A stretch of DNA of 64,000 nucleotides from a virus. The notes under the pieces were generated by a model, which ran no database searches, was not told where the DNA came from, and saw nothing but the letters and a program-made list of their open reading frames with translations. The stretch lies in IMG/VR virus record IMGVR_UViG_3300037467_000627; one strand, 5' to 3'. Positions 12,458 to 43,974 of this stretch are shown piece after piece (the first letter of the stretch is position 1; every line of letters starts with the position of its first letter). Made by a program: the position numbers and the translations under genes.

Positions 12458-13294
12458 CTAAAACTCTACCGCCTTTCGCATGGCTTCCATAGAGGTCAAC
12501 GGATACGCCTGTGTGGTCGTGACAGACGCATGGCCGAGCAGTTCTTTCAGGACAAGGATGTCCTTGGTCTCCGACTGGATGATCGTCGCGTACGTCGCCC
12601 GCAAGTCGTGGCTTGAGATCTCGCGGGACAGCTTGGCAATCTTGCCGAGGCGCGTGACGAGGGCTCGAGCCACGCGATCCGAGAACGGACACAGCAGCGC
12701 GTCAGTCTCGACACACTCCACGAAGGCCGACATGATGGCCGACCAGCACCTTGTGGATACCGGTACGTAGCGAACCTTGTCACCTTTGCCGTGGACAGTC
12801 AGGATCATTGTCTGGAGGTTCAGGTGAGACGGACGCACCCTCCGCGCTTCGTGCACCCGAAGGCCTGCCATGCCACACAGACCGATGATCGCCTCTTCGT
12901 GACAGGTCCTAGAGACCTGGATCAGGAGGAGTAGGGACTGCAGGAGGCCTGGGATAGGATGGGGCTGGGGTGGTGGTGGTGGCGGGGACTTGTACCCCTC
13001 CAGCACTGCCGGGATCCTCGCCCAGGTTGCCAAACTCCGTAGACTCGTAATACGTCGCCTCGTCGTCCTCGGAGATGCCATCTTTCTCTGGATCCCAAGC
13101 CATTCCCGACTCTTCGAATCCAGTTCCTCCGCTGGGAGCATCACTGCCTCGAACGGGATCCTCTGCTGCTGAGCCACCCACTCCAGAAACATCCGGAGAT
13201 CCGTCTCGTACCCCTTCGCCGTGTTCTCCGACAGGCCTGCGTCTAACAATGAGCTGCGGTACTTGGCGATAATTTCTGGAGTCAATGTCGTCAC
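12458..13294 (-). CDS. tyrosine recombinase (XerC/D-like, no arm-binding domain)
   Basis: N-terminal SAM-like core-binding motif (LSENTAKGYETDLRMFLEWV), GLRVHEARR (Arg I), HDLRATYAT (H-x-x-R), LLGHASVTTTQAY (His/Tyr). Confidence 0.85.
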   Translation of the reverse strand: MTTLTPEIIAKYRSSLLDAGLSENTAKGYETDLRMFLEWVAQQQRIPFEAVMLPAEELDSKSREWLGIQRKMASPRTTRRRITSLRSLATWARIPAVLEGYKSPPPPPPQPHPIPGLLQSLLLLIQVSRTCHEEAIIGLCGMAGLRVHEARRVRPSHLNLQTMILTVHGKGDKVRYVPVSTRCWSAIMSAFVECVETDALLCPFSDRVARALVTRLGKIAKLSREISSHDLRATYATIIQSETKDILVLKELLGHASVTTTQAYPLTSMEAMRKAVEF

Positions 13295-19901: not shown

Positions 19902-20188
19902 TTCCGCTCCTCCGGGTCGCCGCAGACGATGCACTCATCGCGCAGGTGGTCTTCGTTGCGATACCAGCAGTAACCGTTCGGTGAATCAGGGCACTGCCAG
20001 AAGCCGCCGCCCATTATCGGAGGCTTGTCGAGTTTGAAGAACTCTTGTGCAGCGAGCTCAGCCTTCTCGCGCGTGAGGCGGATATCCTGATCAAGACGAG
20101 TTGTGATGACGCAGCGAGCAGACTGAAGCTTGGCGATCTCGTCTGTGAGGCGCTGAATCTTCTGCTGGCCTGGCTTACTTGGAGGCAT
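19898..20188 (-). CDS. hypothetical protein
   Basis: ATG at 20188 with GGAGGA about 8 nt upstream. CPD...CIVCG cysteines. Confidence 0.6.
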   Translation of the reverse strand: MPPSKPGQQKIQRLTDEIAKLQSARCVITTRLDQDIRLTREKAELAAQEFFKLDKPPIMGGGFWQCPDSPNGYCWYRNEDHLRDECIVCGDPEERK

Positions 20189-20952: not shown

Positions 20953-21459
20953 CTAGAACGGTAGGTCTTCGTGATTACTCGTACGGGGAGTGTCTCGCCA
21001 GAACTTGTGACAGTTGCCACAGTACTGCTCGCGTACATCGTTGGGGTTATAGCTGGTCTTGAAGCACTCGGGACACGTGAATGACTCGTGCGAGACAGAC
21101 TCCCAGGCAAGCGTTGTCATCTTGCGCAGGAACCTGGGGTTGCAGTCTGGATGCACACAGTCGACAGCATCGTGAGTGTGATCACTCGGTGGCAGCATCT
21201 CATGCTCCAAGCGCGCAATACTCCATCGCACCTGCGCCCAGGTCATGTCCGTGTTGTACTCGATCTGAAGGGGTGTCCGACGAGGCTTCCGCTGGGGAGG
21301 CATGAGTATCCAATAAAGGCCGGATTTGATGCCATTGAAGATGTCCTCAAAGATGCCCGTGACCTCTTCGAAGTACATGGCGAAGCCTCGAGCGAGCGCA
21401 GCACCTGTTACCACGACACCCGCGCCAAAGAGGATTGTCAGCCAGTCATTAGCCTGCAT
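20953..21459 (-). CDS. hypothetical membrane-anchored zinc-ribbon protein
   Basis: N-terminal hydrophobic segment WLTILFGAGVVVTGAALARGFAMYF. C-terminal CPEC...CGNC. Confidence 0.65.
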   Translation of the reverse strand: MQANDWLTILFGAGVVVTGAALARGFAMYFEEVTGIFEDIFNGIKSGLYWILMPPQRKPRRTPLQIEYNTDMTWAQVRWSIARLEHEMLPPSDHTHDAVDCVHPDCNPRFLRKMTTLAWESVSHESFTCPECFKTSYNPNDVREQYCGNCHKFWRDTPRTSNHEDLPF

Positions 21460-22993
21460 TCGACCTCACAGTATCCAGGAGGATCTCGCGCGTGGTCGGA
21501 TCCAGGTTGTTCGCAACTGCCTGTCGGTATGCCATGACGGGCGAGAAGTACCGGAGGGCTCGTGCCACCTTGATCTGAGGTCGCAGGCCCCACGAGATCG
21601 ACGCGAGCGGGCCGGTCTCGATCAGCCCGCGAATCTCCTCGGCGGCCTTCTTGATCAGGTGAACCTGTGCATCGTTCAGCTGCCAACCGTCGTGGGCCAG
21701 GTGCTTCTGGATGATGCCGAGCTCGATGTCCTCGTCCGGCAGTGGAATCTCGATGTGCATCAGACGGTTCGTGTCCGCGTCGGCCAGCACCTCAGCGCCC
21801 ACGTTGCGCAGGTCCCAGGCGGGGTTCATGGCGAAGCCGAGGTAGGTGTGATCGTGTGGCTTGATCGTCTCGCCGACGTTGACATCCATGATCAGCTGCT
21901 TGCTGTTGTCAATGAGGGGACGAAAGAACTGCTGCACATCCTTCGGTCCAAGGTTCCACTCGTCAACACACAGCCAGCATGCAGTTTGGTATGCCTGCAC
22001 GAAGCGACCGTACGCAAAGAAGGTTCCACGCTCTGGCGAGAAGTGAGGCTTGCCAGCCAGGTCGTCGAGCTCGGATGAGCCGGTGATCGTAAAGCGCTCG
22101 AACGGCAGGCCGCACATCCAGGCCAGATGCCGGAACAGCTCCGTCTTGCCTACGCCAGGCTCGCCCCACACGGCGGGAGCCATCTTCAGCTTGGTGGTGT
22201 GCACCGCAACCGAGTACACGCCTCCGTAGTAGTCGACGTACTCCTCTGGGTGCTCGCGGTCGCCTGTCCTCGGGATCTTCGCCTGGGCGGCCTCGTCGAA
22301 GATGCTGTCCGTGAAGATGGGAAGGTAGACCTCGTGACCGGGGACCTCGATGAAGTCCGGATCTGGATTCTCGATACGCCGCCAGGCGACGATCCCTTGG
22401 GCGCGATCAAGGTCGGTGAGCTCCTTGTCAGAGTCGTACTCGTTGGGGTCGGCTACTAGTAGCGCACCGACCGCAGCTGTGTCCGATCCAAAGCTGTCCA
22501 CCAACTCCGGGAAGAGCGTGATGCCGTGTGTTGTGCGAGTGGCTGAGCCGACTTGACCCTCGGTGCACTCGGATGCCACATCAACCAGCTCGGCACCCAG
22601 GAGGAGCACGCCCTTCTTCTTGCAGAGGGGTGTTGCCCAGCCCAACTCACCAGCGACGATGTCCTCGGGCACGAAGAACTGGCAGCCAGCGCAGGACGGG
22701 GGCTTGACTGTGACTGGCGGCACCGCGCCAGTTGGCGCGGGTGAACTCAGGTCGCCGATGGCCACCGGGAAGACCGTAGTGCCAGCCCTGGTCTTTCGGC
22801 GGTCGCCGTACTCGTCACACAGGCTCGCGTAGTGCTGGGCTAGCTTGGTGATCTCCCGCTCGGTCGATCCCATCTTGCCGAAGACCTTGCCGTGCATGGC
22901 GCATACGGGAGTTCCGAAGGACTTGCCGAAGTGACTCGATGCCTGGGCGGGGGTCAGGAAGTTCGGGCAGTCTTTGCACGAAAGTGCGGACAC
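21449..22993 (-). CDS. AAA+ ATPase, MoxR/CobS-like
   Basis: Walker A WGEPGVGKTE, Walker B LCVDEWN. Downstream pattern AMNPAWD...ADADTNRLMHIEI as in the CobS/MoxR family. ~270-aa Cys-containing N-terminal extension. Confidence 0.8.
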   Translation of the reverse strand: MSALSCKDCPNFLTPAQASSHFGKSFGTPVCAMHGKVFGKMGSTEREITKLAQHYASLCDEYGDRRKTRAGTTVFPVAIGDLSSPAPTGAVPPVTVKPPSCAGCQFFVPEDIVAGELGWATPLCKKKGVLLLGAELVDVASECTEGQVGSATRTTHGITLFPELVDSFGSDTAAVGALLVADPNEYDSDKELTDLDRAQGIVAWRRIENPDPDFIEVPGHEVYLPIFTDSIFDEAAQAKIPRTGDREHPEEYVDYYGGVYSVAVHTTKLKMAPAVWGEPGVGKTELFRHLAWMCGLPFERFTITGSSELDDLAGKPHFSPERGTFFAYGRFVQAYQTACWLCVDEWNLGPKDVQQFFRPLIDNSKQLIMDVNVGETIKPHDHTYLGFAMNPAWDLRNVGAEVLADADTNRLMHIEIPLPDEDIELGIIQKHLAHDGWQLNDAQVHLIKKAAEEIRGLIETGPLASISWGLRPQIKVARALRYFSPVMAYRQAVANNLDPTTREILLDTVRSNAG

Positions 22994-27870: not shown

Positions 27871-28017
27871 TCAGCAGTCGACGACCTTCAGCTGACACAT
27901 GTTCTTGCCCTGCTGTTCCATCTCCTGGTCGGACTTGTGCTGCTCGTAGTTGATCTTGATGACCAGAGCTACAGCGCCGACCACGAGAACTGTCAGGGCG
28001 ATGATCAGCTTCCGCAT
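27871..28017 (-). CDS. small membrane/secreted peptide (48 aa, below track cutoff)
   Basis: MRKLIIALTVLVVGAVALVIKINYEQHKSDQEMEQQGKNMCQLKVVDC. Its ATG overlaps the upstream stop as TGATG. Confidence 0.5.
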   Translation of the reverse strand: MRKLIIALTVLVVGAVALVIKINYEQHKSDQEMEQQGKNMCQLKVVDC

Positions 28018-28889
28018 CAGGACACGCGGTAGATGCGGATGTCGTACGCCACCTTGAACTGCGGAGTCGCGCCGTTGTCCACGCCGCCGAAGCCGGACTC
28101 GTCCTCGTTGTACCCGAAGCCTCGCACGTGGCAGACGCGCCGGTGGTCGGGGTCGCTCACGCCGACCACGCCAGAGGTGTGGCTCGTCAGCTCGATCTTG
28201 CCCTTCTTGCTGATCGGCACGCCCATCGTGGTAGCAGTCGCGTGCTCACCGGCGTCGCCCCACTCGTTCTCGCAGCGCACGGTGAGCTGCGGGTAGGTGT
28301 CGGTGTCCGGCGTGAGGTAGCCCGCCTCGTTGTAGTTGAGGCGATCGAAGACCGCGTTCACTTCCAGGTTGTAGGTGCCAGTGTCGGCGGGCAGGTTGAA
28401 CGCGGTCAGCTCGGTGGCGCGCGTCGCGTAGCTGCCGCCGATGTGCTCGATGTTCTTGTAGTCGCCTGCGACGGACCAGACCAGCTTGCCGAACACGTCC
28501 GGGGTGTTCGCGTCGGTCGTCAGCATGCGCTGCACGTTCGCGTCCAGGGTGTCGAGGTGCACCGAGCCGTCCGCCGGTCCCTGGTTGACCTTGGCGAGCG
28601 CCGCGTTCGAGGTCGTCGTGGCCTTCGTGATCTGGCTGCGGATGTCGGAGCCGAGCTTCGACCAGGGGATCGTGTTGTCGTGGATGTGACCACCCCAGAC
28701 GGAACCGAGGCCGTAGTCGGCAGCGGTGAGGCTGCGGTACTTGACCTGCTCCGTGCCGACCGTGTTGGGGCCTGGCGTGTAGGTGACAGTCGAGGTGGCG
28801 CGTTCGGGCGCGGTGTACGCCTGGGCACTGACACTGCCGCCGAGAATGCAGGCGACCGCCAGCGCACCAGCAATGATGCGTGACTTCAT
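28017..28889 (-). CDS. secreted protein of unknown function
   Basis: The track ORF was trimmed to the ATG at 28889. MKSRIIAGALAVACILGGSVSAQA-YTAP is a classic signal peptide. Visibly higher G+C than the flanks. Confidence 0.65.
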   Translation of the reverse strand: MKSRIIAGALAVACILGGSVSAQAYTAPERATSTVTYTPGPNTVGTEQVKYRSLTAADYGLGSVWGGHIHDNTIPWSKLGSDIRSQITKATTTSNAALAKVNQGPADGSVHLDTLDANVQRMLTTDANTPDVFGKLVWSVAGDYKNIEHIGGSYATRATELTAFNLPADTGTYNLEVNAVFDRLNYNEAGYLTPDTDTYPQLTVRCENEWGDAGEHATATTMGVPISKKGKIELTSHTSGVVGVSDPDHRRVCHVRGFGYNEDESGFGGVDNGATPQFKVAYDIRIYRVS

Positions 28890-29373
28890 GAGGATCTCAT
28901 CTTTCTTGATGGAGCGGAACGGGAAGGTTTGAGGCGATTGCGTCAGCATGGCTCGCCTCGGGCCTACGATTCTTCCTACTGCCCTGGACATTCAGGAGAT
29001 GCCTCAGGGGGTCGTGCCCTAATAACTGGAGTTATTCAGTTGTTTACGAACCAGCCCTCGAGGTGCGAGCTCGATGCTGGTACCCACAGAACTGCTAGGG
29101 CGATACAAGGTCGGCCCAGCAGCCATGCTCGACGCACCTGACGAGGTAGAGATTGCACATCCGAAGAACGCGTCAGGTGTTCCACCGTCTTGCATGGCCA
29201 CTGGGCCAGTTCATAAGGGTGGTCCGTTTACACTCGATCGTACACCTCGTGATCCATGAAGGTGGACCATTCCCTCACGAGGCATCACTGCAAGTAGTTG
29301 CACATTCCTCACAGCTTAGGATTCCATGCCAGGTCTACCCGAAGGTAACCAGTCAGCGGTGCAAATCCCGTCG

Positions 29374-29799: not shown

Positions 29800-30738
29800 T
29801 CAGGCCGCCTTGCGGGCGCCCTTCGGCTGGCCATCGGCGGCGTCCACTGGCTCGACGCCCTCGAGGGTGCACTTGCCGGACTTCGGGAACAGGCGCGCCG
29901 ACACAGCTCCCGGGCTCGGGTGCTCGTCGCCGTACTCGGCCGAGTTGTGCGAGACGATCTGCGCCACGGTCAGGAAGTCGCCGGGGTTCTTGTCCGCGAA
30001 CGCCTCGAGGATGTGCTTGCCGATGTCGCGCCGCGTACCGGTGAACGGCGTGCGAGTGCCGCCACTGGAGCCCTTGCTGACCTTGCCCTGCGCCAGCTTC
30101 AGCGCGCGCCGCGCCAGGGCCGACACCTGCGGCTCCTCGCCCTCGCCGGTGTACTGGGCGAGCTTCTGCACGTCCTGCATCGTCTCACCGGCGAGCTTCT
30201 GCGCCCGGTCGTTCCAGTCCTCGGCGACACCGTCCGGCACGTTCTGCGTGACGTGGCTGTACGCCAGCTGCAGCGCGACGACCTGCTCCACGAAGTTCGT
30301 GGTCGGGTCGGCCGGGGCCTTCGGCTCCTTGGAGCTGCTGCCCTTGGCCTTGGTGATCTCGCCACGGACCGCGTTCAGGGCACGCGCGAGCGGGACGTTC
30401 GGGGTGTCGCCCTCGAGCGCCTCCTTGACGCCGTTCTCGATCCAGGCACGGGCGGCCGCCTTCGGCTTCGCGCCGTCGAGCGACTGGTACGCGGCCAGCA
30501 CGTTGTGCATCTGCTCGGTCGAGAGCGTGCCCGTGGTCGGGTCCATCTCGGCGATGGCCTTCTGGATCGCCTCGTCGAACGCCTTGGTGTCGACGACCGC
30601 CTCGGTCGCCTCGGTGTTCTGCGCCGGGGCCGAAGTCGTCTCGGCTGGCGCGTCGGTCGCGGTGGCAGTCACCGTGTCCTCCTTGGGTTTCGCTGTGGCC
30701 TTCTTGGCCGCAGTCTTGGTAGCGGGCTGACGCGCCAT
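29800..30738 (-). CDS. hypothetical protein, putative winged-helix C-terminus (paralogue A of 36504..37295)
   Basis: Start moved to the ATG at 30738 (GGAGGT RBS). The C-terminus HILEAFADKNPGDFLTVAQIVSHNSAEYGDEHPSPGAVSARL aligns with the 263-aa protein at 36504..37295. Confidence 0.65.
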   Translation of the reverse strand: MARQPATKTAAKKATAKPKEDTVTATATDAPAETTSAPAQNTEATEAVVDTKAFDEAIQKAIAEMDPTTGTLSTEQMHNVLAAYQSLDGAKPKAAARAWIENGVKEALEGDTPNVPLARALNAVRGEITKAKGSSSKEPKAPADPTTNFVEQVVALQLAYSHVTQNVPDGVAEDWNDRAQKLAGETMQDVQKLAQYTGEGEEPQVSALARRALKLAQGKVSKGSSGGTRTPFTGTRRDIGKHILEAFADKNPGDFLTVAQIVSHNSAEYGDEHPSPGAVSARLFPKSGKCTLEGVEPVDAADGQPKGARKAA

Positions 30739-30876
30739 TGCGGATACCTCCTGCGATATCGGGCGTCGGGTGTTCGATCGTCGTTTGACCATCTGAGCTA
30801 TCAGCGAACCTAGCGCTGACACCGCACATGGTCAAGCCGGGGGTGCGTGCCTAGTGTACGAGCCTGCTATCGGAGA

Positions 30877-34884: not shown

Positions 34885-35022
34885 TTACAACGGCCTCGTC
34901 AGGTACATGATGACTGCGCGCGCCACAGGGCTACCAAGGATAGCCAGGGCGACGAGCGTGCGAGCTGCGTACCAGCAGATCTGATACAGCACGCCTAGCG
35001 GCAAGATGGTGATCGGCTCCAT
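34885..35022 (-). CDS. small membrane protein (45 aa, below track cutoff)
   Basis: MEPITILPLGVLYQICWYAARTLVALAILGSPVARAVIMYLTRPL. Its ATG overlaps the upstream stop as TGATG. Confidence 0.4.
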   Translation of the reverse strand: MEPITILPLGVLYQICWYAARTLVALAILGSPVARAVIMYLTRPL

Positions 35023-35375
35023 CAGTGCCCTTGCCTCCCGTCAGGTCCCCAAGGACCCCACTGCTGCGCTGCACTCGTCGGGCCGAGATCGAAGTCGCTA
35101 TCCGACTCCTCGGCCTGCTCGAGGGGTGCGTTGGCGACTGACGCGAGGTTGCACATCTCGATGTGCATCCGCACCTTCTCCGAACGCAGGGCTGCGTCCA
35201 TCAGCAAGGACTGCACTGCGTCGCCGATCTCCTCGCCGTTCTCGTCGAGCTCCTGCGGCGACTTGTAGCCAGCGTGATAGAGGAACTCGACACACAGACC
35301 TGATGCTTCATCGATCCGACTCTTTTCCAGCTCGGTGAGCCTCGTCCACTGGGACGGCAACTTCGGTAACTTCAC
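35022..35375 (-). CDS. hypothetical acidic protein
   Basis: GTG at 35375 behind GGAGGGG. Alternative starts at 35414 and 35486. First gene of the leftward train after the divergent gap. Confidence 0.5.
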   Translation of the reverse strand: MKLPKLPSQWTRLTELEKSRIDEASGLCVEFLYHAGYKSPQELDENGEEIGDAVQSLLMDAALRSEKVRMHIEMCNLASVANAPLEQAEESDSDFDLGPTSAAQQWGPWGPDGRQGH

Positions 35376-35519
35376 CCCAACCCCTCCGTATCTCGTTATC
35401 GGCGGCCAGGTCATACGTCTGGCCCACATGCCCATTCTACGCCGCACTGGGTGGGGAGAACTAGCAATTGATAGCACACACTTCACTGTCGGTAATCAGC
35501 CGAACAAAGGTATATGGTC

Positions 35520-35556
35520 GTTGCCCTCGGCAACAATACTGGTTGCCCTAGGCAAC
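35520..35556. promoter_or_regulatory. two copies of the 15-bp palindrome GTTGCC-N3-GGCAAC, putative operators
   Basis: GTTGCCCTCGGCAAC (35520-35534) and GTTGCCCTAGGCAAC (35542-35556), 22 bp apart, in the divergent gap between 35022..35375(-) and 35681..36010(+). Confidence 0.55.
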
Positions 35557-35680
35557 ATTCTCTGGCTCGCTTGGAATCCTCTGCGAAAGTAGTTCACCAA
35601 GATCACCCAGAGTGTCGTGAGTTTGGTACAATGGATGTAGTCGGGATGGCCCCGACTGACGCACTAGGAAGGTGTAGACC

Positions 35681-36010
35681 ATGACTAAACGAGGTGGACT
35701 AGCGTCCGGACTATGGATTCACCCTGATGACCCCTGGGGAAAGGTGCATCACCTATCTGGGTATGCCTACGTGCCTATGCGACTGAATGACGACGAGCTC
35801 GGTTGGGGATTCCAATCGACACCTATCCGCACACCTCGCCGATGCGAACACGGGTACACCTGTTGTATCGAGTGCGTTGATTCGTGGGCGCTGGACTATG
35901 AGGTCAATTGGGGCGCGACGGCTGGCGGTAGAAGGTTGCGCCAGGCAATCATCGATCGATACGCCACGGACCCCAACGCGCCCGATGTGCGAGGCGTGCC
36001 TAGGCCGTGA
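35681..36010 (+). CDS. hypothetical protein (only plus-strand gene in the early arm)
   Basis: 109 aa. ATG with GGAAGG upstream. CEHGYTCCIEC cysteine cluster. Followed by its own hairpin terminator. Confidence 0.55.
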   Translation: MTKRGGLASGLWIHPDDPWGKVHHLSGYAYVPMRLNDDELGWGFQSTPIRTPRRCEHGYTCCIECVDSWALDYEVNWGATAGGRRLRQAIIDRYATDPNAPDVRGVPRP

Positions 36011-36040
36011 CGGCACGCGCTAGCTAGCACAAGGCATGAT

Positions 36041-36072
36041 GCGCCCGGACCCCGGTAGGTGGGTCCGGGCGC
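36041..36072 (+). terminator. stem-loop terminator after 35681..36010
   Basis: 12-bp perfect stem GCGCCCGGACCC / GGGTCCGGGCGC with an 8-nt loop, 30 nt past the stop. Confidence 0.6.
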
Positions 36073-36452
36073 ATTGTCGTAGGTGGGCCTGACTGGGCCG
36101 TAATGGGGCCTAGAACGCGCGTTCAGGCGGTCCGGGTAGGTGGGTGTGGGTGCGGGGGTTCAGGCCGTCAGAACGGCACACACGGCGTGTGGCGCGCGGG
36201 CCGTGGTCGGCGCGGGCCGGTAGCGGGCTAGGACTCGCTACGCGCGGGCCGTAGACGGGCCGTAGGCGGGCGCTGGGCGCGTGATGCGGTGTCGGGTGTA
36301 GGTGGCATCTAGCGGGCCGTTAGAACGGCACACACGGACGCGCCACGAGGTATGTAACACAGGCGGTGTCACATGGCGTGTCGGCACGGGATTGTCGACT
36401 GTATACAGCTGATCGTCGGCGGCATGCCGGATACTGTATACAGCAGGTAGCA

Positions 36453-36494
36453 AAACAAACCACCGACCAGGTTGCCCTGATCGGTGGTTTGTTT
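36453..36494 (-). terminator. intrinsic terminator after 36504..37295
   Basis: 14-bp perfect inverted repeat AAACAAACCACCGA / TCGGTGGTTTGTTT with a 14-nt loop. On the minus strand the stem is followed by TTTTG. Confidence 0.75.
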
Positions 36495-36503
36495 CCTACG
36501 GGG

Positions 36504-37295
36504 TCACGCGGCCAGGCGGAACCCCTTGACCTTGCTGGCGTTCTCGGTCGACTCGATGCCGTCCATCTCGCGACCGTGCGCCGCGCCGATGGCACCGACC
36601 GAGGGGGCCTCGTCCGGGCCGTACGCGTCCGACCGGTGGTTGTGGATCTGCGCGCAGGTCAGGATGGTGCCCTCGGGTGCGGCCTCCAACGCGGAACGGA
36701 TGTGCGCCTCGACGGACCGCTGCGGGCCGGTACGCCGGTTGCCGGACTTGACCGTGGCCAGCTTCGTGGCCAGCGCGTCACGGGCCTCCGTCTCCTGGTC
36801 ATCCAGGCCACCGTTGACCCGTTCCACGAGTGCGGCGTACGCGTCGGCACCGTGCGCCTCCTTGAACGCGTTCAGGGCGATCTCGCGCGCCGACTCCAAC
36901 GCGGCCAGGTGGATGACGTACGCGTCGGCGGGGTCAACCTCGACCGTGGGCCGTGACGTGACCAGCACCGCGTTGACGTCACGAACCAGGGCCAGCTTGC
37001 CCATGTCCAGGTCGTTCAACGCGTCGGACTGGAACTTGGCCCAGGCGGCCCGCATGGCGGCCTTGGTACCCTTGTCCGCGTTGCGGTACGCCGCGCCGAC
37101 CGACTCGACGTAGGCGGCCTGGTCCGTGTCGGCCGACCAGTCCGGGATGACGTACGCGGGGGCCTGGGTGGTCGGCGCGGCCTTGTCGGTGCCCGTGTTG
37201 GTGTCCGTGGCCTGGACGGGCGCGGGGGTCGGCGCGGGCGCGTCGGCGGTCTGGGCGGTCTTGCGGGTGCGGCGGGTGTTGGTGTTCGTGGTCAT
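36504..37295 (-). CDS. hypothetical protein, putative winged-helix C-terminus (paralogue B of 29800..30738)
   Basis: 263 aa, AGGAGG RBS. The C-terminus HIRSALEAAPEGTILTCAQIHNHRSDAYGPDEAPSVGAIGAAH...KGFRLAA aligns with 29800..30738. Confidence 0.65.
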   Translation of the reverse strand: MTTNTNTRRTRKTAQTADAPAPTPAPVQATDTNTGTDKAAPTTQAPAYVIPDWSADTDQAAYVESVGAAYRNADKGTKAAMRAAWAKFQSDALNDLDMGKLALVRDVNAVLVTSRPTVEVDPADAYVIHLAALESAREIALNAFKEAHGADAYAALVERVNGGLDDQETEARDALATKLATVKSGNRRTGPQRSVEAHIRSALEAAPEGTILTCAQIHNHRSDAYGPDEAPSVGAIGAAHGREMDGIESTENASKVKGFRLAA

Positions 37296-37387
37296 GATTC
37301 TCGGCCTCCTAGCCGGGTAGTGCGGCGGGCACGGTGCCCGCCTAGATCCAGAATGGGTGATGGGTAGGTGCGTGTCAATAGGTGGGC

Positions 37388-37422
37388 GGGTAACGATCTC
37401 GGCGAGTCCGGGATCGTTACCC
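37388..37422 (-). terminator. stem-loop after 37435..37830
   Basis: 11-bp inverted repeat GGGTAACGATC / GATCGTTACCC with a 13-nt loop, 12 nt past the stop. Confidence 0.5.
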
Positions 37423-37434
37423 GACTATGGGTGA

Positions 37435-37830
37435 CTACGGGGTCACTCGGTGCCAGTCGTAGGTGCGCCCGTTCCACACGGGTAGGCACGAGTCCTCGGT
37501 GGGGCACTCGGCGGAACGGACGTAGGCGGGGGTCGGCGGGGTGTCGAGGCGGTCCGTGAGGCGTGTAGCCGTGTAGGCCGACGCCATGACCGATACGACG
37601 ATCACGCTGGCCACCAAGGCGGCCCATGCGGACGCGCGGCCCATGATGCGGAAGGCGGCCCGAAGGTGTGTGCGCCGTACGTGGCGACGGTACGCGCGGG
37701 CCGAACGCGCCTCGGCCTCGGCGGTACGCGGGTAGGTGGGCCGGATACGGGTGATACCTGACTGGTCCGTGATGCATACGCGTCCGTTGCGTGTGACGGT
37801 GCGTACGTTCGTGTAGGTGGGTGTGCGCAT
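37435..37830 (-). CDS. hypothetical single-pass membrane protein
   Basis: The track ORF 37435..38097 was trimmed to the ATG at 37830 (GGGAGG RBS). ASAWAALVASVIVVSVMASAY is hydrophobic. Contains PTY/RTY motifs. Confidence 0.55.
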   Translation of the reverse strand: MRTPTYTNVRTVTRNGRVCITDQSGITRIRPTYPRTAEAEARSARAYRRHVRRTHLRAAFRIMGRASAWAALVASVIVVSVMASAYTATRLTDRLDTPPTPAYVRSAECPTEDSCLPVWNGRTYDWHRVTP

Positions 37831-37963
37831 GGTGTCTAGCCTCCCAGGCCGTGTGTAGCGGTGTGTGTGCCCGTGTGCGGGCCGTTCAGGTGTGTGTAGG
37901 TAGGTGGGTGTGGGTGGGCACCTACGAGGCGTGTAGGCGGCATAGGTGCCCGTGTAGCGCGTG

Positions 37964-39586
37964 CTAGCGGATGGCGTAGTGCGCGTCGAGTGTGTCGGCC
38001 CATGCGGTGTAGTGCGCGCGGGACGGTTCGTAGGTGCCGAGCTCCATCTCGCGCACCAACGATGCGTACGCCGCGCCGACCGTGGGGAACGCGACACCCA
38101 CCCACATGGCCCATGTGCGGCGGAACTCGTCCACCATGGCCGCTACGTCGTCGCGTAGCACGGTGCGGTAGGTGTCCCGCTCGAACGGCACGCGCGTGAC
38201 TACGCGGGTGTAGGTGTCGGGCGCTACGGGGCCGTAGGTGCCCGCGTAGCGTGCGTTGGCGCTACCGGTGAACGTGTGCCCGTTGGCGTCACGGTGCGCG
38301 CCCGCGTGACCGATAGGTGCGATGCATGCGCCGTACGCGCCGTGATCGTGTAGGCACGTGGCGACCATGGGCCACGATGCCGACGACACGCGGTCATAGG
38401 TGCCCTCGGCAACTTCCTGCCAATAGGTGCCCTCGGCAACTACGTAGGTGGTGGTGCGACCGGACTCGTCGGTGTACCACATGTGGTTGACGTCCGCGCG
38501 GGTGACCGTGCCATCCGCGTAGGTGCGCGTGGTGACCGTGCCATCGGTGGTAACGGTGTAGTCGGTGCCGTGTCGGGATGTGCCCGTGTAGGTGCGACCG
38601 GGGATCATGCCGACCCACGGCGCGGGGTCTACTACGCCCATGGCGCGCGCTACGTGGGCGCGTACGGGCCGACCGAACACGGACACGTAGGTGTCGGTGT
38701 CGGCGGGGTCCGTGGCGTCTACGGGCGCGCTAGGTGTCGCTACGAACGGCACACCGAACGCGGATACGGCGTCGGTGTCATCGGCGGTAGGTGCGTCGTT
38801 GGTGTCGGTGGCAACGTGCACGATGTAGTCACTACGCGGTGTGGTCCATGACCCGTTGTCCGTGATGATGCGAACAATGGTCCAACCGTCATCGTCGGTG
38901 TCGGCATCGATGGTGTCGTGTTCCACGGTGCCCGCGATGGTGCGGGTGATCGTGCGCCCGGTGCCGTCACCCGTGTGCATGTGCAACGTGACGTAGGTGC
39001 CGGGCGCAACGGTGTCTAGCAACACGCCGTGTTCCCCGCACGCGATGCACACGGGTGCGTCGGTGCCGGTAGGTGCGTAGGTGTCGGTGTCGGCACCGTG
39101 TACGTCTAGGTAGGACATGCCCGTTTCGGGGTCGGTGTCCGCGTCGGTGGTGTCACGGTCGAACCACGGCGTAGCGTCGGTTGCCGGAACCGTAGGTGCG
39201 CCGTAGGTGTTCGTGCCGGTAGACGCGTAGCCCATGCCATCGGCGGTACCCACGTAGCTACGCGCGGGGTCAACGGTGGTGATGGGCACGCCGTAGCGGG
39301 TAGCTAGCACGGTGGGTTCGTCGGTGTAGGTGTGGTCGGTGTGCGGGGGGGTGGGCATGTAGGTGCCGAACACATCCGCACCGGACGACAACGGTGCACA
39401 CCACACGGCGTAGCCATCGGTGTAGGTGTCGGACCCCACGTAGTAGCCCCATCCCGTAGGTGCGGTGTCGCGGTGCGCGTCGAACCACCGGGTAGCGCCC
39501 GCATGGGTGCGGTAGCCACTACGGATGATGTGTGCGGTCATGTCGGTGTGGTCGGTGTGTGCGTGGGTGCGGATGGTGTTCGTCAT
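37964..39586 (-). CDS. orphan 540-aa Thr/Tyr/Asp/His/Gly-rich protein
   Basis: ATG at 39586 with AGGGG upstream. At least 15 (G/D/P)-T-Y tripeptides, encoded by the recurrent CACCTAC heptamer. No domain recognised. Confidence 0.6.
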   Translation of the reverse strand: MTNTIRTHAHTDHTDMTAHIIRSGYRTHAGATRWFDAHRDTAPTGWGYYVGSDTYTDGYAVWCAPLSSGADVFGTYMPTPPHTDHTYTDEPTVLATRYGVPITTVDPARSYVGTADGMGYASTGTNTYGAPTVPATDATPWFDRDTTDADTDPETGMSYLDVHGADTDTYAPTGTDAPVCIACGEHGVLLDTVAPGTYVTLHMHTGDGTGRTITRTIAGTVEHDTIDADTDDDGWTIVRIITDNGSWTTPRSDYIVHVATDTNDAPTADDTDAVSAFGVPFVATPSAPVDATDPADTDTYVSVFGRPVRAHVARAMGVVDPAPWVGMIPGRTYTGTSRHGTDYTVTTDGTVTTRTYADGTVTRADVNHMWYTDESGRTTTYVVAEGTYWQEVAEGTYDRVSSASWPMVATCLHDHGAYGACIAPIGHAGAHRDANGHTFTGSANARYAGTYGPVAPDTYTRVVTRVPFERDTYRTVLRDDVAAMVDEFRRTWAMWVGVAFPTVGAAYASLVREMELGTYEPSRAHYTAWADTLDAHYAIR

Positions 39587-39774
39587 GGTGTGCCCCTAGG
39601 TGTGATCGGTGGGTGGTAGGTGGTGCATGAACAACGTACGTGTAGGCGCATCGTAGGTGTAGGGGTAGGTGTGGGTTTCGGGATCTTGTTACCATACTGC
39701 AATGTACGCACCGTGATAAGGCGTCACAAGGTGTAGTCGTGTGATGTGTGCGTGTAGGTGTGGCATGAGTGGTG

Positions 39775-40046
39775 GTTGCTAAGGGCAACAAAGCGCCGAA
39801 CGAGTGCATGACTTCGTTGCCAAAGGCCCCTATTGAGTCATCGTTGCCTCGTGCAACCTTTGCCATGGGCAACAATACACCTTTGTTGACCTCGGCAACG
39901 ATTACGTTGCCATCGGCAACTGATGCCAAAGGCAACCGATAACGTACATTATCGGTCGGCATATCGATGCCTGACGCAACGAGTTTTGTTGCCAACGGCA
40001 AACACCTTTGATGCCCTCGGCAACTAAACCGATTGCCCTTGGCAAC
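39775..40046. repeat. phased array of 11 copies of the 15-bp palindrome GTTGCC-N3-GGCAAC
   Basis: Sites start at 39775, 39816, 39843, 39859, 39885, 39906 (perfect), 39922, 39966, 39988, 40010 and 40032. The last four are exactly 22 bp apart. No convincing ORF. Confidence 0.85.
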
Positions 40047-40124
40047 AAAGAAAATTCCGACCCCCCCTCGCGTGGCGCGCCTCTGAGCGCTTTTCGTACC
40101 TGACAAATTTTTTGGGTACCTAAG

Positions 40125-40142
40125 GATGATAGTACTATCATT
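40125..40142. promoter_or_regulatory. palindrome GATGATAGTACTATCATT (perfect core TGATAGTACTATCA)
   Basis: Same core as the 15941 operator-like palindrome. Confidence 0.5.
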
Positions 40143-40199
40143 AAGAGCCCTACAAGCTACGCCCTCTGCACCCATGAAGCCGACCATGGACAAGACGAG

Positions 40200-40795
40200 G
40201 ACACCTGACACCCTACAGAGTATATATACTATATATATACTTTAATTACTGTATAATATACACGAGCTATTCACGGGCGGTCCACCTGTAGCGTTTGCCC
40301 ACGTCACGGGCCATCTTTGGGGTTTGTGCGGGTTTCCTGACCCCCATTCCGTCCCCCTCTGTGCGGCATGCCTCACTGACACCGACCGTTTTGTACCATG
40401 TCTCCCCTTGTAGCGTTGTACCATCAGTCTCCCCTTCTCCTCCCTTTTGGGCCTATATAAGGACCCCGTATTAATTAATTCCCCGACGATCGCCAAAGAT
40501 GCCCCGTGACGTGGGAAAACACACCAGGGGATTAGTTTTTCGGCCGCTGGCGTTTATCCCATGGACGGAATTAATCCGAGTGACCTGCCTGGTGATAGTG
40601 CTATCCATTGTCAGACCCTACTCCACAAGTTTTGTACCAAGTCTAGCCTATTCTAGACCGTTTTGAATAAACACGAGCGGTATACTCACCAAAATTATCA
40701 GAAATCCGGATTAATTGCCCTGATATGACAAGTCTAACGCGAAACCGTCCACTTCGGCCACGTTCTGGCGCCTTTTTAGACTGAAAGTAGACACG
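40200..40795. other. AT-rich, ORF-free, repeat-dense segment (candidate origin / regulatory hub / ncRNA locus)
   Basis: TATATATAC x2 (40221-40240). Three copies of TTGTACCAnnGTCT (40388, 40413, 40629). 13-bp long-range inverted repeat CCCACGTCACGGG (40298) / CCCGTGACGTGGG (40503). TGATAGTGCTATC at 40593. ATTAAT-containing motifs. Confidence 0.6.
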
Positions 40796-40839
40796 AAAAA
40801 GCGCCCACTCAGCGCCTGTTTTGCAGGTCTGAGGGGCGC
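40796..40839 (-). terminator. intrinsic terminator ending the replication-gene transcript
   Basis: On the minus strand: GCGCCCCTCAG...CTGAGTGGGCGC stem (one bulge) followed by TTTTTCG, 15 nt past the stop at 40854. Confidence 0.75.
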
Positions 40840-40853
40840 GATTTCGACGCTAG

Positions 40854-41102
40854 TTAGACGACTTTGATCTCGTGGCGTAGGTGTCCGCGCCCGTCGATGA
40901 CCGACTTGTGGCCGATGCAGAGCACGCGATGGAACGAAGCAGCGGACTGAATGAGCCAGATGAAGTCGATTTCCTCTTGAACTCCTAGGCCAGATTCGCC
41001 CAACTTGCGCTCTTTCCCCTCCTCGCGCAGAAATGCGTTGAGTTTGCCATCGATGCGCTCGATGACGATTCTTGCGTCCTCACTTAGCGGTGTAGCAGTC
41101 AT
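40854..41102 (-). CDS. hypothetical protein
   Basis: The track ORF was trimmed to the ATG at 41102 (MTATPLSEDARIVIERIDGKLNAFL...). Confidence 0.55.
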   Translation of the reverse strand: MTATPLSEDARIVIERIDGKLNAFLREEGKERKLGESGLGVQEEIDFIWLIQSAASFHRVLCIGHKSVIDGRGHLRHEIKVV

Positions 41103-41109
41103 CAGCTTG

Positions 41110-41430
41110 TCACTTCCTGGTCCAGTACCCACACTGGCCGGTCGACGAGAACGTCTGGTTTTTGGACCCCGTGCCGAGGATGATCGACGGAGTTTGGTTC
41201 TTTCTGGAGTACTTTTGGCGCCAGATCAGGGTGCCGTTGATGTTCTTCATCGAGTACGTGCAGCCCGGTGAGGCGCTCTTTGCGTACCAGATTCCGTAGT
41301 ACGCGGGGGTGACTTTGCGATTACCTGAGCCCATGGACTCGGCCGACCCGACATCGTCGGGACAGCCAGTCAGGGCCACAGTTGAGGCGGCGACAGCGAG
41401 TACAGCTAGTACTTTTCGTGCAGAATTCAC
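41110..41430 (-). CDS. putative lipoprotein
   Basis: MNSARKVLAVLAVAASTVALTGC: signal peptide ending in the lipobox L-T-G-C. Confidence 0.7.
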   Translation of the reverse strand: MNSARKVLAVLAVAASTVALTGCPDDVGSAESMGSGNRKVTPAYYGIWYAKSASPGCTYSMKNINGTLIWRQKYSRKNQTPSIILGTGSKNQTFSSTGQCGYWTRK

Positions 41431-41876
41431 AGTGATGCAACCTTGTCAGCGAAGTGGACATGACCGATGATCTCGTTGGGAAGAATGCGGGACTCGGCTT
41501 CGGTGATGAGCTCGTCTAGAACCTCGTATCGTGCGTTGGCGGACTTGGCTTGCTGGCTGCGGACGGCCAGCCGATGGGCGCGGCGGCACAGCAGGCCACG
41601 ACAGCCTTGCATGTACCCTGCGCGCCTACCGTGCTGGCCGGAGAACTGAGGCTGGGCTACCTCGGCCATGAAGTGAGCGATGAGCTTGGTGATCAGCTCG
41701 GTCCGCGTGCCGTCTAGCACCGCGCCGAGGTCGCGCACTGGGCAGGGAGTGCCCGCGACGTCGGCAACGTGCATCTTCAGCTGGGCGTCCCAGTAGACCG
41801 GGCCGTGCTCCATGTACTCCAGGCACTGCTTCGTGAGATTGGTCGCTTCTTCGCCGACCGGGTAGGGGTTAACCAT
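41427..41876 (-). CDS. hypothetical protein
   Basis: The track ORF was trimmed to the ATG at 41876, which overlaps the primase-helicase stop by 8 nt. Confidence 0.6.
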   Translation of the reverse strand: MVNPYPVGEEATNLTKQCLEYMEHGPVYWDAQLKMHVADVAGTPCPVRDLGAVLDGTRTELITKLIAHFMAEVAQPQFSGQHGRRAGYMQGCRGLLCRRAHRLAVRSQQAKSANARYEVLDELITEAESRILPNEIIGHVHFADKVASL

Positions 41877-43974
41877 GCTGGACACTCCTGAGACGGACGG
41901 GGGGACGACCAGCCTTACCGGTCTGAACCTTGACTTCCTCGATGAATCCAGCCTTGATGAGCTCATTGATGGCCTCGTTGACCTGCTTGGTTCCGATGTT
42001 CTTGGTCTTCATCGCGTCATACAGCATCGAGCGGTTCGGGCCGAGTCCGTTGCCGAATTCAGCCTCCTTGCGCTTGATGTAGTTCAGCACACGATCGATG
42101 AACTCCTGCTGCTGCGACTTGCCGATCTGAGCGCCGACGAGCCTGAGATTCGCGAGGATGTAGGGGTGGAGCTTCTCGATGAACGCTACGTCGAGCTCGC
42201 TGACTTCGGTCGCGCGGCGGTTGATTGCGTGACACAGCATGAGCTTCTTGTAGTGGATCTCGAGGCGGGCGATCATGTCATCGTCGGACCGCTTGATCAT
42301 CAGATCGACCGGAGCGAAGAACTCCTTGAACGCCTGGCGACCCTCGGGGGTTACCTCGAGGATGACCGGGGCGTCTGTGGGGTTCTTCCTCTGCGAGGCA
42401 ATCGCGATCCCGCTGAGCGTATTGAGTGCCTGCTGCAGATTGATCGCCACTCCACCGAAGTAGTCGTCGCGCTGCTTGGTCGGCCCGGATACATACAGCC
42501 AGCGGTTGAGGTAGCCCGACGCCTGATCCTGGCTGTCGAGGAGCTTGCGGAGCGCCCTCGGCTGGCTGGAAGTGCTGAACGTGGCGAACGCATCGCGGGC
42601 AGCCTTGCGTCCGTGCGTCTGAGAGGAGTTGGTGATGATGTGACGCCCGTCGATGAAGTCCATGATCTTGGTCTTCAGCGTAGACCCTTGGATGGATGAC
42701 TTCGCCAGGATGGTCGACAGCTCCGAGAACTCGACGTAACCCTTGATTGGCCTGGGTGCGGCTACACCCTTGAGGGTTCCCTCGAACTCTCCGATCAGCG
42801 CTTCGCCGGACGCTACCTCGCCGACGTAGCGAGCTCCCTCAACCATCACGCCGATGTCATTCTCAGGCATCGCGTAGCCGATGGCCTTTGCGATGTAGTT
42901 CTGTGCGGTCGACTTACCCGAGCCCGTCTTGCCGAGGTAGCAGATCGGCAAGTTCGCCATGACCGGTCGGTCGCCACCCATCAACACATCCCTGCCCGCC
43001 GCCAGGCCAAGCAGGAGAAGCCCGCTAAACAGGTGATACTCCTCCGGACTGTAGTCGTGGCTCGTTGCGTCGCACCACTGATACAGGAAGGTGTCCTGGT
43101 AGTCCTTCAGAGCTTCCCGCCACGGAAAACTTGGAATGTTTGCGTCTGAGTCAAGTTCCGGGTCGTAGGCGTCGACTTCCGGATCGATGGAGATAACCTC
43201 CGCGAGAGGCTCATCAGGCTCCGGAGGTATGCCCGTTGCAAGCGGAACAAAGCCGAGCTGTGTGGGCGGCGGCACAAGATGCAGTGCTGGGGGTGTGGCC
43301 CCATCCTCCACCGGCTGCACGCCTGGAGAATCAGGCGCAACTGGCTGTACCGCACTGGGTCGCGGCGCGGGTTGCAAAACCGGAGGGGGTGGAACAGGTG
43401 TAGATACAACGACCGGCGGTACGAGGTCATACCCGCCTCCTACTTTCTCGTTGAACGAATAGCCCAGATCTTCGCCCATGGCGCGCCTGAGCTTGTGGAA
43501 CATGGCACCCTCTTTATATCCGGGCACCGGGAATCCGTGGTGGTATGCAGCGATGTCGTAACCATCGCCGCCCTCCTGGCAGCCTCCGCAGAACCAAGTA
43601 TTCTTCTCGGTATTCAGCCAGGCGGAAGGGTTAGCGTCCTTATGACTGGGCTTCGGACAGGACACCATGATCGACTCGGTGCGGCCGGACGAAACCTTTG
43701 GCTTCATCTTTCCGCACCACTTCGCGTACGCCTCGAGGATGCCGATTCCGTCGAGGATCCTGTCCAGCTCGATGTCCTCGTCTGTACGCGTGTGAGACGA
43801 GTCTGAGTCAGTGTCCGGAATGAGTGCAGGGTCAAACTGAGGTGTAGGCGGCGACGCCGGAGCTACAGCTTCTTGTTCAGCTGCGCGCTTGGCGTTCGCC
43901 GCCGCCTGAAGCTGACGAGCCCTCTCCAGAAGCGAGAGAGGCTGGTCAGTCACGGAATGGGTCTCCCATCTCAA
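41869..43974 (-). CDS. DNA primase zinc-finger / P-loop helicase fusion protein
   Basis: CPKPSHKDANPSAWL...WFCGGCQEGGD (CHC2-type zinc finger of DnaG-like primases). Walker A LGKTGSGKST about 330 aa downstream. 701 aa. Confidence 0.7.
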   Translation of the reverse strand: MRWETHSVTDQPLSLLERARQLQAAANAKRAAEQEAVAPASPPTPQFDPALIPDTDSDSSHTRTDEDIELDRILDGIGILEAYAKWCGKMKPKVSSGRTESIMVSCPKPSHKDANPSAWLNTEKNTWFCGGCQEGGDGYDIAAYHHGFPVPGYKEGAMFHKLRRAMGEDLGYSFNEKVGGGYDLVPPVVVSTPVPPPPVLQPAPRPSAVQPVAPDSPGVQPVEDGATPPALHLVPPPTQLGFVPLATGIPPEPDEPLAEVISIDPEVDAYDPELDSDANIPSFPWREALKDYQDTFLYQWCDATSHDYSPEEYHLFSGLLLLGLAAGRDVLMGGDRPVMANLPICYLGKTGSGKSTAQNYIAKAIGYAMPENDIGVMVEGARYVGEVASGEALIGEFEGTLKGVAAPRPIKGYVEFSELSTILAKSSIQGSTLKTKIMDFIDGRHIITNSSQTHGRKAARDAFATFSTSSQPRALRKLLDSQDQASGYLNRWLYVSGPTKQRDDYFGGVAINLQQALNTLSGIAIASQRKNPTDAPVILEVTPEGRQAFKEFFAPVDLMIKRSDDDMIARLEIHYKKLMLCHAINRRATEVSELDVAFIEKLHPYILANLRLVGAQIGKSQQQEFIDRVLNYIKRKEAEFGNGLGPNRSMLYDAMKTKNIGTKQVNEAINELIKAGFIEEVKVQTGKAGRPPVRLRSVQHG

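Follow-up and report, generated by a model that had tools for sequence, protein, structure and literature searches.

The 64,000-nucleotide stretch of viral DNA analyzed here in its entirety (IMG/VR record IMGVR_UViG_3300037467_000627; hereafter the window) is a tailed-phage genome of ~60% G+C, in which minus-strand genes run from ~44.9 kb down to position 1 and plus-strand structural genes occupy the sequence from 45.08 kb on. Examination of the region between 35.5 and 40.85 kb (hereafter the block) reveals open reading frames (ORFs) for proteins of 109, 263, 131 and 540 amino acids (aa), two groups of a single palindromic site and a strongly strand-polar heptamer, GTAGGTG. A first-pass annotation, made from the sequence alone, had proposed that the block is a self-contained module and a horizontally acquired accessory island. 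All four of the ORFs that it listed are present, and the 540/131/263-aa trio is also recovered in independent gene calls of near-identical contigs. Likewise, the ~380-nt non-coding segment that it had placed between terminators is found between the hairpins at 36039-36074 and 36453-36494. Both tRNAs of the window lie outside the block. We read the block, tentatively and with slightly less than even confidence, as the conserved control region and first leftward operon of an uncultivated actinobacteriophage clade, and not as an acquired island.

The 540-aa protein has 13 metagenomic homologues, from which the contigs of five, and later of a sixth (L025), were fetched; scans of IMG/VR and JGI metagenomes for more relatives supplied three additional loci only. 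In every relative recovered (lineages L004, L005, L006, L009, L010 and L025, with many near-identical strains) the block is whole and has the same order and place. The terminase and portal genes are divergent from those for the AEP primase, the DUF3987 helicase and two to three small proteins; these are followed by a ~1.2-kb gap, a homologue of the 540-aa gene, a gene for a protein of 109-163 aa, a homologue of the 263-aa gene (263-289 aa), a second gap and then the early genes. Identity between lineages is ~40% for the 540-aa protein and ~66% for the 263-aa protein. The homologous block of the relatives has 65-70% G+C and a skew of -0.2 to -0.3 (C>G), as against 48-60% G+C in the flanks, and is likewise enriched in the heptamer, of which the large gene holds 6-8 copies per 500 bp on one strand and zero on the other. 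Given this conservation across relatives, the composition and the heptamer are maintained features and not the scar of a recent transfer. The truly variable pieces are only the 109-aa gene, absent from L004 and L009, and a 92-aa ORF (40854-41132) just outside the block. Most of the latter ORF is made up of a 236-bp segment (40867-41102) that is present in the window and L012 but not in L003, L011, L013 and L015, contigs that otherwise share 97.7-99.8% identity with the window (BLASTN). In these contigs an overlap of 8-15 bases is seen between the BLAST alignments flanking the gap. It is this segment, and not the block, that shows true presence/absence polymorphism.

Rhodococcus phage ReqiDocB7 and the cluster-CS Gordonia phages are remote kin of the clade. 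All relatives found for the 701-aa primase-helicase (41869-43974) are remote, namely those of the Rhodococcus phages Perlina (34% identity) and ReqiDocB7 (29%) and, at ~25% identity, of ~100 cluster-CS-type Gordonia phages; a megablast comparison of 35.0-41.5 kb with 50,697 phage records gave zero DNA-level matches. The slot that the block fills is bounded by the primase/helicase operon and a long early-gene train. In ReqiDocB7 the same slot, which follows the helicase and three small genes, holds a 2.5-kb unannotated stretch of direct and inverted repeats. A repeat-filled non-coding region of 1.2-2.5 kb has been described as an unusual feature common to ReqiDocB7, GTE7, GordTnk2, Gmala1 and GordDuk1, with no function offered (PMC4563357). 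In the Gordonia phage Kvothe the slot consists of non-coding DNA, 1.86 kb at the left end and 0.76 kb at the right end of the genome, and its repeat families disclose a direct terminal repeat (DTR; 1-1172 equals 74291-75462); a terminal repeat of 1,172 bp has been published for the sister phages of Kvothe (PMC4919401). Given that these genome ends map to the slot, the block sits where cultured relatives have their genome ends. Contig breaks fall at differing places (window 40326, 41322 and ~39695) and are uninformative on physical termini.

The corresponding region of ReqiDocB7, GTE7, GordTnk2, Gmala1 and GordDuk1 and the DTR gap of Kvothe and Katyusha share with the block its slot, more than 1 kb of non-coding DNA, dense inverted repeats and an AT-rich patch, and the window and ReqiDocB7/CS-type genomes have in common the helicase, the AEP primase, an XerC-like recombinase and genes of the gp081 family. 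In contrast, there is no sequence similarity between the regions, whose repeated words are AATG-N6-CATT and phased GATC in ReqiDocB7 and AAACTATAA in Kvothe. The three block genes and the palindrome arrays are absent from ReqiDocB7, Perlina and Kvothe, and neither the C>G skew nor the heptamer is seen in Kvothe or ReqiDocB7. In the ReqiDocB7 gap (record ~70221-70311) GATC motifs lie mostly 8 bp apart over ~90 bp, and the gap contains at least six AATG-N6-CATT palindromes; these words are unlike those of the window, and the repeat density is analogous. In Kvothe the terminal repeat is separated from gene 1 by an AT-rich cluster of inverted repeats of the AAACTATAA type, and the start of gene 99 falls inside that terminal repeat. 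It follows from these comparisons that the 540/131/263-aa trio is a clade innovation inside an ancestral non-coding region.

The view that the block is a recently acquired accessory island, for instance a partition, maintenance or defense cassette, is accordingly largely refuted already, and we regard it as highly improbable. The block composition is unlike that of the flanks and its arrays are centromere-like, similar to parC/parS sets, both of which an island would accommodate, as it would the absence of trio and palindromes from ReqiDocB7, Perlina and Kvothe; this absence places the arising or arrival of the genes in the ancestral non-coding gap at a deep node. Among close relatives, however, the block does not come and go as a unit: its collinearity extends to all six diverged lineages, and so does its composition anomaly, which, being kept at ~40% protein identity, does not bespeak a foreign origin. 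Furthermore, the 263-aa gene was duplicated from a core gene, the recombinase gene of the phage is not adjacent to the block, and the flanking palindromes are operators and not att-type direct repeats. PADLOC gives zero matches, and no ParA/ParM/TubZ-type nucleoside triphosphatase (NTPase) was found among the ORFs scanned for one, namely those of the block and the larger ORFs of the window, which is not every ORF. Cluster CS has been described as lacking temperate features and as lytic (PMC5559632). The more specific suggestion of a maintenance module for an extrachromosomal prophage has no evidence in its favor, given the same NTPase result, the description of the nearest cultured relatives as lytic and the absence from actinobacterial genomes of the core 18-mer discussed below; of a partition module, the block does display a repeat cluster and a winged-helix candidate, with binding of the one by the other as a prediction only. 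The first-pass annotation had itself named a conserved, syntenic block of ordinary composition in relatives as speaking against its proposal: conservation and synteny are what we find, while the composition is not ordinary.

As to that composition, G+C is indeed raised (67-69% over 36-39 kb) and accompanied by a GC skew of +0.10 to +0.22 in 1-kb windows, but the early arm, put at ~52% G+C in the first-pass annotation, in fact has ~57-62%, and 1-kb windows elsewhere are equally G+C-rich (9-10 kb, 0.68; 30-31 kb, 0.67). The segment from 40 to 41 kb has 51% G+C. The feature unique to the block is the skew, not G+C itself. The raised G+C is due to codon and amino-acid usage, with G+C at third codon positions (GC3) of 0.82-0.94 and at second positions (GC2) of 0.53-0.63 in the block genes; a GC3 of 0.86-0.90 is found in other phage genes, including large genes of the structural arm and a paralogue of the 263-aa gene at 29800-30822.

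Prominent among the cis elements is the 15-bp palindrome GTTGCCNNNGGCAAC (GTTGCC-N3-GGCAAC), which was correctly noted at the outset to bracket the block. The window contains 13 matches with at most one mismatch, against 0.13 expected, and with at most two mismatches exactly two sites at 35520/35542 and 11 sites in 39775-40046. The larger group is arranged around a core element. On the helicase-gene side (39966-40046) the distances from the core to the site centers are 94, 72, 50 and 28 bp; the resulting 22-bp phasing, close to two helical turns and of the kind seen at origins, is retained in six lineages. On the 540-aa-gene side, which has 5-7 sites, the centers lie 16, 32, 53, ~80 bp and more away. 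The offsets of this array, directly upstream of the 540-131-263-aa genes, are identical in the six lineages. Across 56 array sites there are 76 deviating half-site positions, of which 0 have a compensating change in the opposite arm, and the central 3 bp vary freely. Hence the palindromes are best understood as sites of a dimeric protein on double-stranded DNA, and an interpretation as RNA hairpins was rejected. One or two equivalent palindromes occur at the same place before the early train in L004, L005, L006 and L010, ~80-120 bp upstream of a conserved TAGAAT hexamer that precedes the first early gene. Three extra palindromes of GTTGCC-N3-GCAAC type lie in L005 (13349-13402) between the terminator of the 263-aa gene and the C-rich segment (Table 1), and a single one (11546) immediately precedes the 263-aa homologue of L004. 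Two near-palindromes, GGTGCCCTCGGCAAC, occur 27 bp apart inside the 540-aa gene (38399-38440), at the repeated peptide VAEGTY, and may be coding coincidences or extra binding sites.

The TAGAAT hexamer and a conserved non-coding block fall within the first 110 nt of the first early ORF as called (154 aa; 35022-35486, minus strand). Relatives match the first part of this ORF in another frame, and gene calls in near-identical contigs give 117-137 aa. On these grounds the called start appears too early, and the true one probably lies near 35375, ~37 codons later.

The core has the form of a tyrosine-recombinase site, namely inverted arms around a 6-8 bp spacer, with a putative resemblance to dif and lox sites. 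An alternative explanation, which we consider unlikely, is that it is the crossover site of a phage XerC-like tyrosine recombinase and that the palindromes bind an accessory architectural protein in the style of attP, cer or res; such a system could circularize terminally repeated genomes after injection or resolve multimers, as Cre-loxP does in P1. The core is canonical in form, single in copy, centered in the ~270-bp array and invariant across lineages, the sole variation being in the spacer of L009. The window also encodes a 278-aa recombinase (12458-13294, minus strand) with Phage_integrase and SAM-like N-terminal domains, which is conserved in ReqiDocB7, Perlina, GordTnk2, GMA3 and Mbo2; of these, ReqiDocB7 and GordTnk2 at least also carry the long inverted-repeat non-coding region (PMC4563357), and the terminal repeats of Kvothe map to the syntenic region. 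The block parallels attP, dif/cer and loxP in its 7-bp inverted arms with a 6-bp asymmetric spacer, its accessory array and its phage-encoded recombinase. It departs from them in that the accessory sites are 15-bp palindromes and not arm-type or IHF/ArgR-type sites, that the recombinase gene lies 24 kb from the core, to which its link is putative, and that no partner site was found. The exact 18-mer of the core has 8 matches in 185,579 reference genomes (596 Gb), against a chance estimate of ~17, and none is actinobacterial; no attB- or dif-like partner beyond chance is therefore seen in these genomes, integration at an identical core is unlikely, and this route was rejected. Moreover, this core is missing from ReqiDocB7 and Kvothe, which do have the recombinase family or the gap, and the two extra palindromes at the early operon would be left without a role. 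No attP/attB evidence was found here for the 12458-13294 recombinase.

The sequence between the array and the helicase operon holds further conserved elements (Table 1). Read leftward, the order is the helicase terminator, the 23-bp units, the TATATA tract, the ATGATAGTACTATCAT palindrome, an A/T tract, the invariant block GGTCGGAATTTTCTTTGTTGCC, the four phased palindromes, the core, the further palindromes and the leader of the 540-aa gene. Between the terminator and the TATATA tract lie ~550 bp in which conserved blocks, among them the 23-bp units, are found. Both copies of the 23-bp unit in the window carry identical changes, and 40.25-40.86 kb can form a 19-bp long-range stem with some double changes, uncompensated in L010; repeated protein sites fit equally well. 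The tract and two other palindrome types stand 80-270 bp further upstream of the array. At the opposite end of the block, the C-rich segment is kept even in lineages without the 109-aa gene. It has zero Rfam matches, and the consensus fold of 36.0-36.4 kb is weak, its covariation term being positive and lending no net support, and does not favor a reading as a small RNA; an Rfam scan of 35.0-41.5 kb yielded one chance microRNA match only. The second palindrome type could be an operator or promoter for this segment.

Table 1. Sequence features of the block and its borders, with positions in the window
Feature	Position	Strand	Remarks
TAGAAT -10-like hexamer	35434..35439	-	Conserved in alignment; candidate early-operon promoter, putative in function
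Two perfect GTTGCC-N3-GGCAAC palindromes	35520..35556		22 bp apart; upstream of long leftward early-gene train
109-aa Cys/His-rich protein	35681..36010	+	Real but dispensable gene; 67-83% identical in L005, L006, L010
14-bp perfect hairpin	36039..36074		Bidirectional terminator-like, from sequence
C-rich, G-poor non-coding segment	36075..36380	-	~300 nt; internal duplication; 4 CACCTAC copies; conserved in six lineages
Second palindrome, two copies of ACTGTATACAGC	36398-36409, 36433-36444		Family form CTGTATACAG; 2-3 copies at same place in every lineage
Terminator hairpin after 263-aa gene	36453..36494	-	Conserved in alignment
263-aa protein	36504..37295	-	GC3 0.94; candidate palindrome binder
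131-aa protein	37435..37830	-	One hydrophobic segment; 37-49% identical in relatives
540-aa Thr/Tyr/Asp/His-rich orphan	37964..39586	-	18 CACCTAC copies
Leader of 540-aa gene	39587..39770	-	4 CACCTAC copies; conserved AGGGG Shine-Dalgarno and ATG
Array of 11 GTTGCC-N3-GGCAAC palindromes	39775..40046		Same geometry in L004, L005, L006, L009, L010
Core, CCGATAA-TGTACG-TTATCGG	39937..39956		7-bp inverted arms, 6-bp asymmetric spacer; once in window
Third palindrome type, ATGATAGTACTATCAT	40126..40141		Alignment-invariant block; related copy GATAGCACTATC near 40590
TATATA-rich tract	40214..40260		Conserved; candidate DNA-unwinding element and/or divergent promoters
Two inverted copies of 23-bp unit	40285-40332, 40481-40528		CGCAGGTCACGGGnCATCTTTGG family; ~150-200 bp apart
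Terminator of helicase/primase operon	40799..40817	-	Conserved in alignment

The proteins of the block belong to no known family, as had been supposed from inspection: Pfam, PHROGs, NCBIfam, PADLOC, PDB sequence searches and fold searches return no functional match. The first-pass description of the 263-aa protein as a winged helix-turn-helix-like paralogue is borne out. Its model (predicted local distance difference test score, pLDDT, 77.6) comprises a disordered basic N-terminus rich in Thr, Ala and Pro, a helical middle (residues 59-179) and a winged-helix C-terminus (195-263), for which the best PDB fold matches are the Forkhead, Fur and LOTUS domains, all weak (E 0.2-1). A PDB sequence-profile search gives 0 matches, and a search of BFVD folds only an uncharacterized TIN2 homologue; the sequence homologues, 19 of 19, belong to this clade. 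The paralogue at 29800-30822 (340 aa; 26% identity, E 2e-6) is a member of the ReqiDocB7 gp081/phrog_6708 family, and the 263-aa gene is an internal duplication of a core gene and not an import. Its GC3 is the highest measured among window ORFs, which suggests high expression. On account of co-occurrence, fold and the exclusion of the 109-aa protein, the product is the best candidate for the palindrome binder; the 109-aa protein was rejected as repressor or binder because L004 and L009 retain the arrays without it.

The 540-aa protein has a conserved N-terminal domain (duplicated in some members), a C-x-H...C...H...H-x-D motif with invariant C411, H413, C421, H427, H431 and D433, and C-terminal helices, while its center is hypervariable. 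An exhaustive profile search over 1.84 billion representatives gave 20 matches, 13 of them at E <=1e-30, all clade members and fragments; Pfam gave nothing to add to the weak extra profile matches, tblastn against phages found nothing, and the AlphaFold model is poor (pLDDT 48.7), with no meaningful match in a fold search (query template-modeling score, TMq, <=0.12). It is conceivable, though doubtful, that the 540-, 131- and 263-aa genes are the first to be expressed from the entering genome end and serve host takeover or anti-defense, with the arrays merely regulating them, and that the orphan and the membrane protein act by counter-defense, exclusion or shut-off. The pre-early genes of T5 and the class I genes of T7 offer an analogy. 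The block lies beside the position that the physical ends have in relatives, the 540-aa family is clade-restricted, its center shows extreme indel variation around invariant Cys and His residues, a small membrane protein follows, and the GC3 of 0.82-0.94 suggests strong expression, all of which would fit. Against this stand the PADLOC defense models, which match 0 of 6 proteins, and the PHROG matches, which include no anti-defense annotation; the structure model of the 540-aa protein is too poor to interpret, and both the physical ends of this phage and first expression are putative. Such a role, furthermore, leaves the fixed array geometry, the core and the heptamer unaccounted for.

Saturation of the block with the heptamer GTAGGTG, already remarked on in the first-pass annotation, is evident from 41 copies in the window against 4.7 expected; 32 of these lie in 36055-39760, 31 of the 32 on the plus strand. 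In its coding-strand form CACCTAC it is by far the commonest 7-mer of the block (31 copies) and is found in the 540- and 131-aa genes, the leader, the intergenic spacers and the C-rich non-coding segment, with none in the 263-aa gene. Most copies in the 540-aa gene read C-ACC-TAC, that is Thr-Tyr. In the six homologues Thr is encoded by ACC before Tyr in 96/98 cases as against 301/458 elsewhere (Fisher p 1.8e-13), and the preceding base is C in 91/98 (p 1.6e-11), whereas the rest of the genome has only 20 Thr-Tyr in 14,206 residues, without such codon bias. Synonymous shuffles yield 6.5-9.8 copies against the 16-19 observed in each homologue, which 0 of 1000 shuffles reach. A second frame, GCA-CCT-ACN (Ala-Pro-Thr), employs codons that are rare in these genes: GCA in 21/24 cases against 78/510 elsewhere (p 8e-14) and CCT in 30/65 against 18/207 (p 1.7e-10). 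Of the 65 alignment columns with CACCTAC, 48 are lineage-specific, yet 16-19 copies are kept per gene; the flanks of the heptamer are unconstrained, and non-coding copies are not position-conserved between lineages. Given that synonymous codon choice in two frames keeps the word, selection acts on the nucleotide word and its polarity, not on the protein.

In these respects the heptamer recalls Chi, read by RecBCD/AddAB, and the FtsK-orienting polar sequences (KOPS) and SpoIIIE recognition sequences (SRS): it is short and rich in G/T, nearly all copies are on one strand (31:1), its excess goes beyond coding, selection on DNA or RNA maintains it, and GTAGGTG read 5'->3' on the plus strand points towards the array and core. 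It differs from them in its density of ~1 per 120 bp, its confinement to 3.7 kb and its one-sidedness, in that the convergent polarity of KOPS is wanting and no opposite-strand copies lie on the helicase side of the core in the window or the relatives. We know of no Chi or KOPS word for Actinobacteria, and a literature search yielded nothing usable on GTAGGTG, Chi in actinobacteria, the mycobacterial dif consensus or virion proteomics of TIN phages. One could speculate, although this seems quite improbable, that GTAGGTG is a polar DNA signal read by a translocating enzyme and that the block is an end-protection or circularization device for a terminally repeated genome. The one-strand cluster would then halt a nuclease of the RecBCD/AdnAB type that enters at a genome end within the 39.8-40.9 kb gap or, alternatively, steer a translocase towards the core, upon which the XerC-like enzyme would recombine the core flanked by a palindrome-bound scaffold. 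If true, this would supply the first candidate Chi-like word for an actinobacterial host, and would explain the presence of a tyrosine recombinase and a repeat-filled gap in the supposedly lytic ReqiDocB7/CS-type phages. Within the block GTAGGTG occurs just once on the minus strand (37919-37925), where it pairs with CACCTAC at 37900-37906; the two could form a 7-bp stem with a 12-nt loop in the spacer that separates the 540-aa gene from the 131-aa gene. Among the few CACCTAC copies outside the block are three (28299, 28377 and 28785) in a high-GC3 gene for 324 aa (28017-28991, minus strand) beside that of the 340-aa paralogue.

Returning to the control region, we propose that the block is most likely a platform near the genome end that controls transcription and replication together. 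A phage-encoded dimer, for which the 263-aa protein is the best candidate, would coat the phased palindromes cooperatively, occupying the sites upstream of its own 540-131-263 operon and the pair upstream of the early train. Binding would couple the expression of both operons to the concentration of the dimer itself; melting of the neighboring AT-rich tract for replication, close to the replication genes, would probably be coupled to it as well.

Several points weigh against this proposal. The assignment of the binder is indirect, and the paralogue at 29800-30822 or another clade-specific protein could bind instead; the fold matches of the 263-aa protein are weak, as noted above, and some winged-helix domains bind RNA or protein and not DNA. 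No promoter is confidently placed, a TATGGT hexamer upstream of the 540-aa gene being missing in L005. The AT-rich tract lies ~170 bp from the nearest palindrome, farther than in classical origins, and the high expression implied by GC3 is unusual for a replication initiator. A pure operator/origin model also leaves the tyrosine-recombinase-like core unexplained, and the heptamer and its polarity wholly so.

The lambda O protein and its ori, the iteron Rep proteins of P1, F, R6K and RK2, phi29 p6 and T5 are well-known systems with which the proposal may be compared. Like lambda ori and the iteron origins, the block has multiple initiator-type sites at ~22-bp phasing next to an AT-rich tract, extra sites at a promoter away from the putative origin, a location adjoining replication genes and, in its candidate binder, a winged-helix domain like that of the initiators. 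Unlike them, it shows no homology to O or Rep in sequence or by a strong fold match, all its sites are palindromic, its AT tract is distant from them, the gene of the candidate binder lies 2.5 kb from the array, and origin activity is putative. In phi29, p6 is an abundant small DNA-binding protein that coats phased sites near a linear end and controls early transcription and replication, much as proposed here; in T5 the first-entering pre-early operon stands beside a repeat-dense non-coding stretch in or next to the terminal repeats. The block has no homology to either, its end position is putative, and p6 binding is largely structural and not sequence-specific.

Elsewhere among the minus-strand genes, the window encodes a MoxR-like AAA_5 ATPase (514 aa; 21449-22993) near a 1006-aa protein with a C-terminal CobT/VWA-like domain (16914-19934). 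A SNF2-family helicase is encoded at 5548-7053 and an N6/N4 DNA methylase at 1508-2224.

Together the above observations confirm what had been seen in the sequence and support a coherent, undescribed module in which arrays of binding sites accompany genes for a winged-helix protein, a membrane protein and a large orphan; an acquired accessory island is not supported. In kind, the block is a control, origin or terminus region of a phage, from a clade without a cultured member, and it carries two well-supported, unexplained signals, the array and the heptamer. In the heptamer, selection on nucleotides plainly prevails over codon preference within a coding gene, in two frames and with high positional turnover. 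Candidates for the reader of the word include nucleases, translocases, RNA-binding factors and the machinery of replication or packaging; whichever it is, it has not been described for actinobacteria or their phages. Foam biocontrol makes use of ReqiDocB7, GTE7 and the cluster-CS phages, which have been isolated repeatedly. The uncultivated sister clade presents a sharper version of their repeat-filled region, with a fixed array of one 15-bp site, an invariant recombinase-like core and a clade-specific winged-helix paralogue, and this version, with its directly testable candidate binder, makes the function of the region experimentally tractable.

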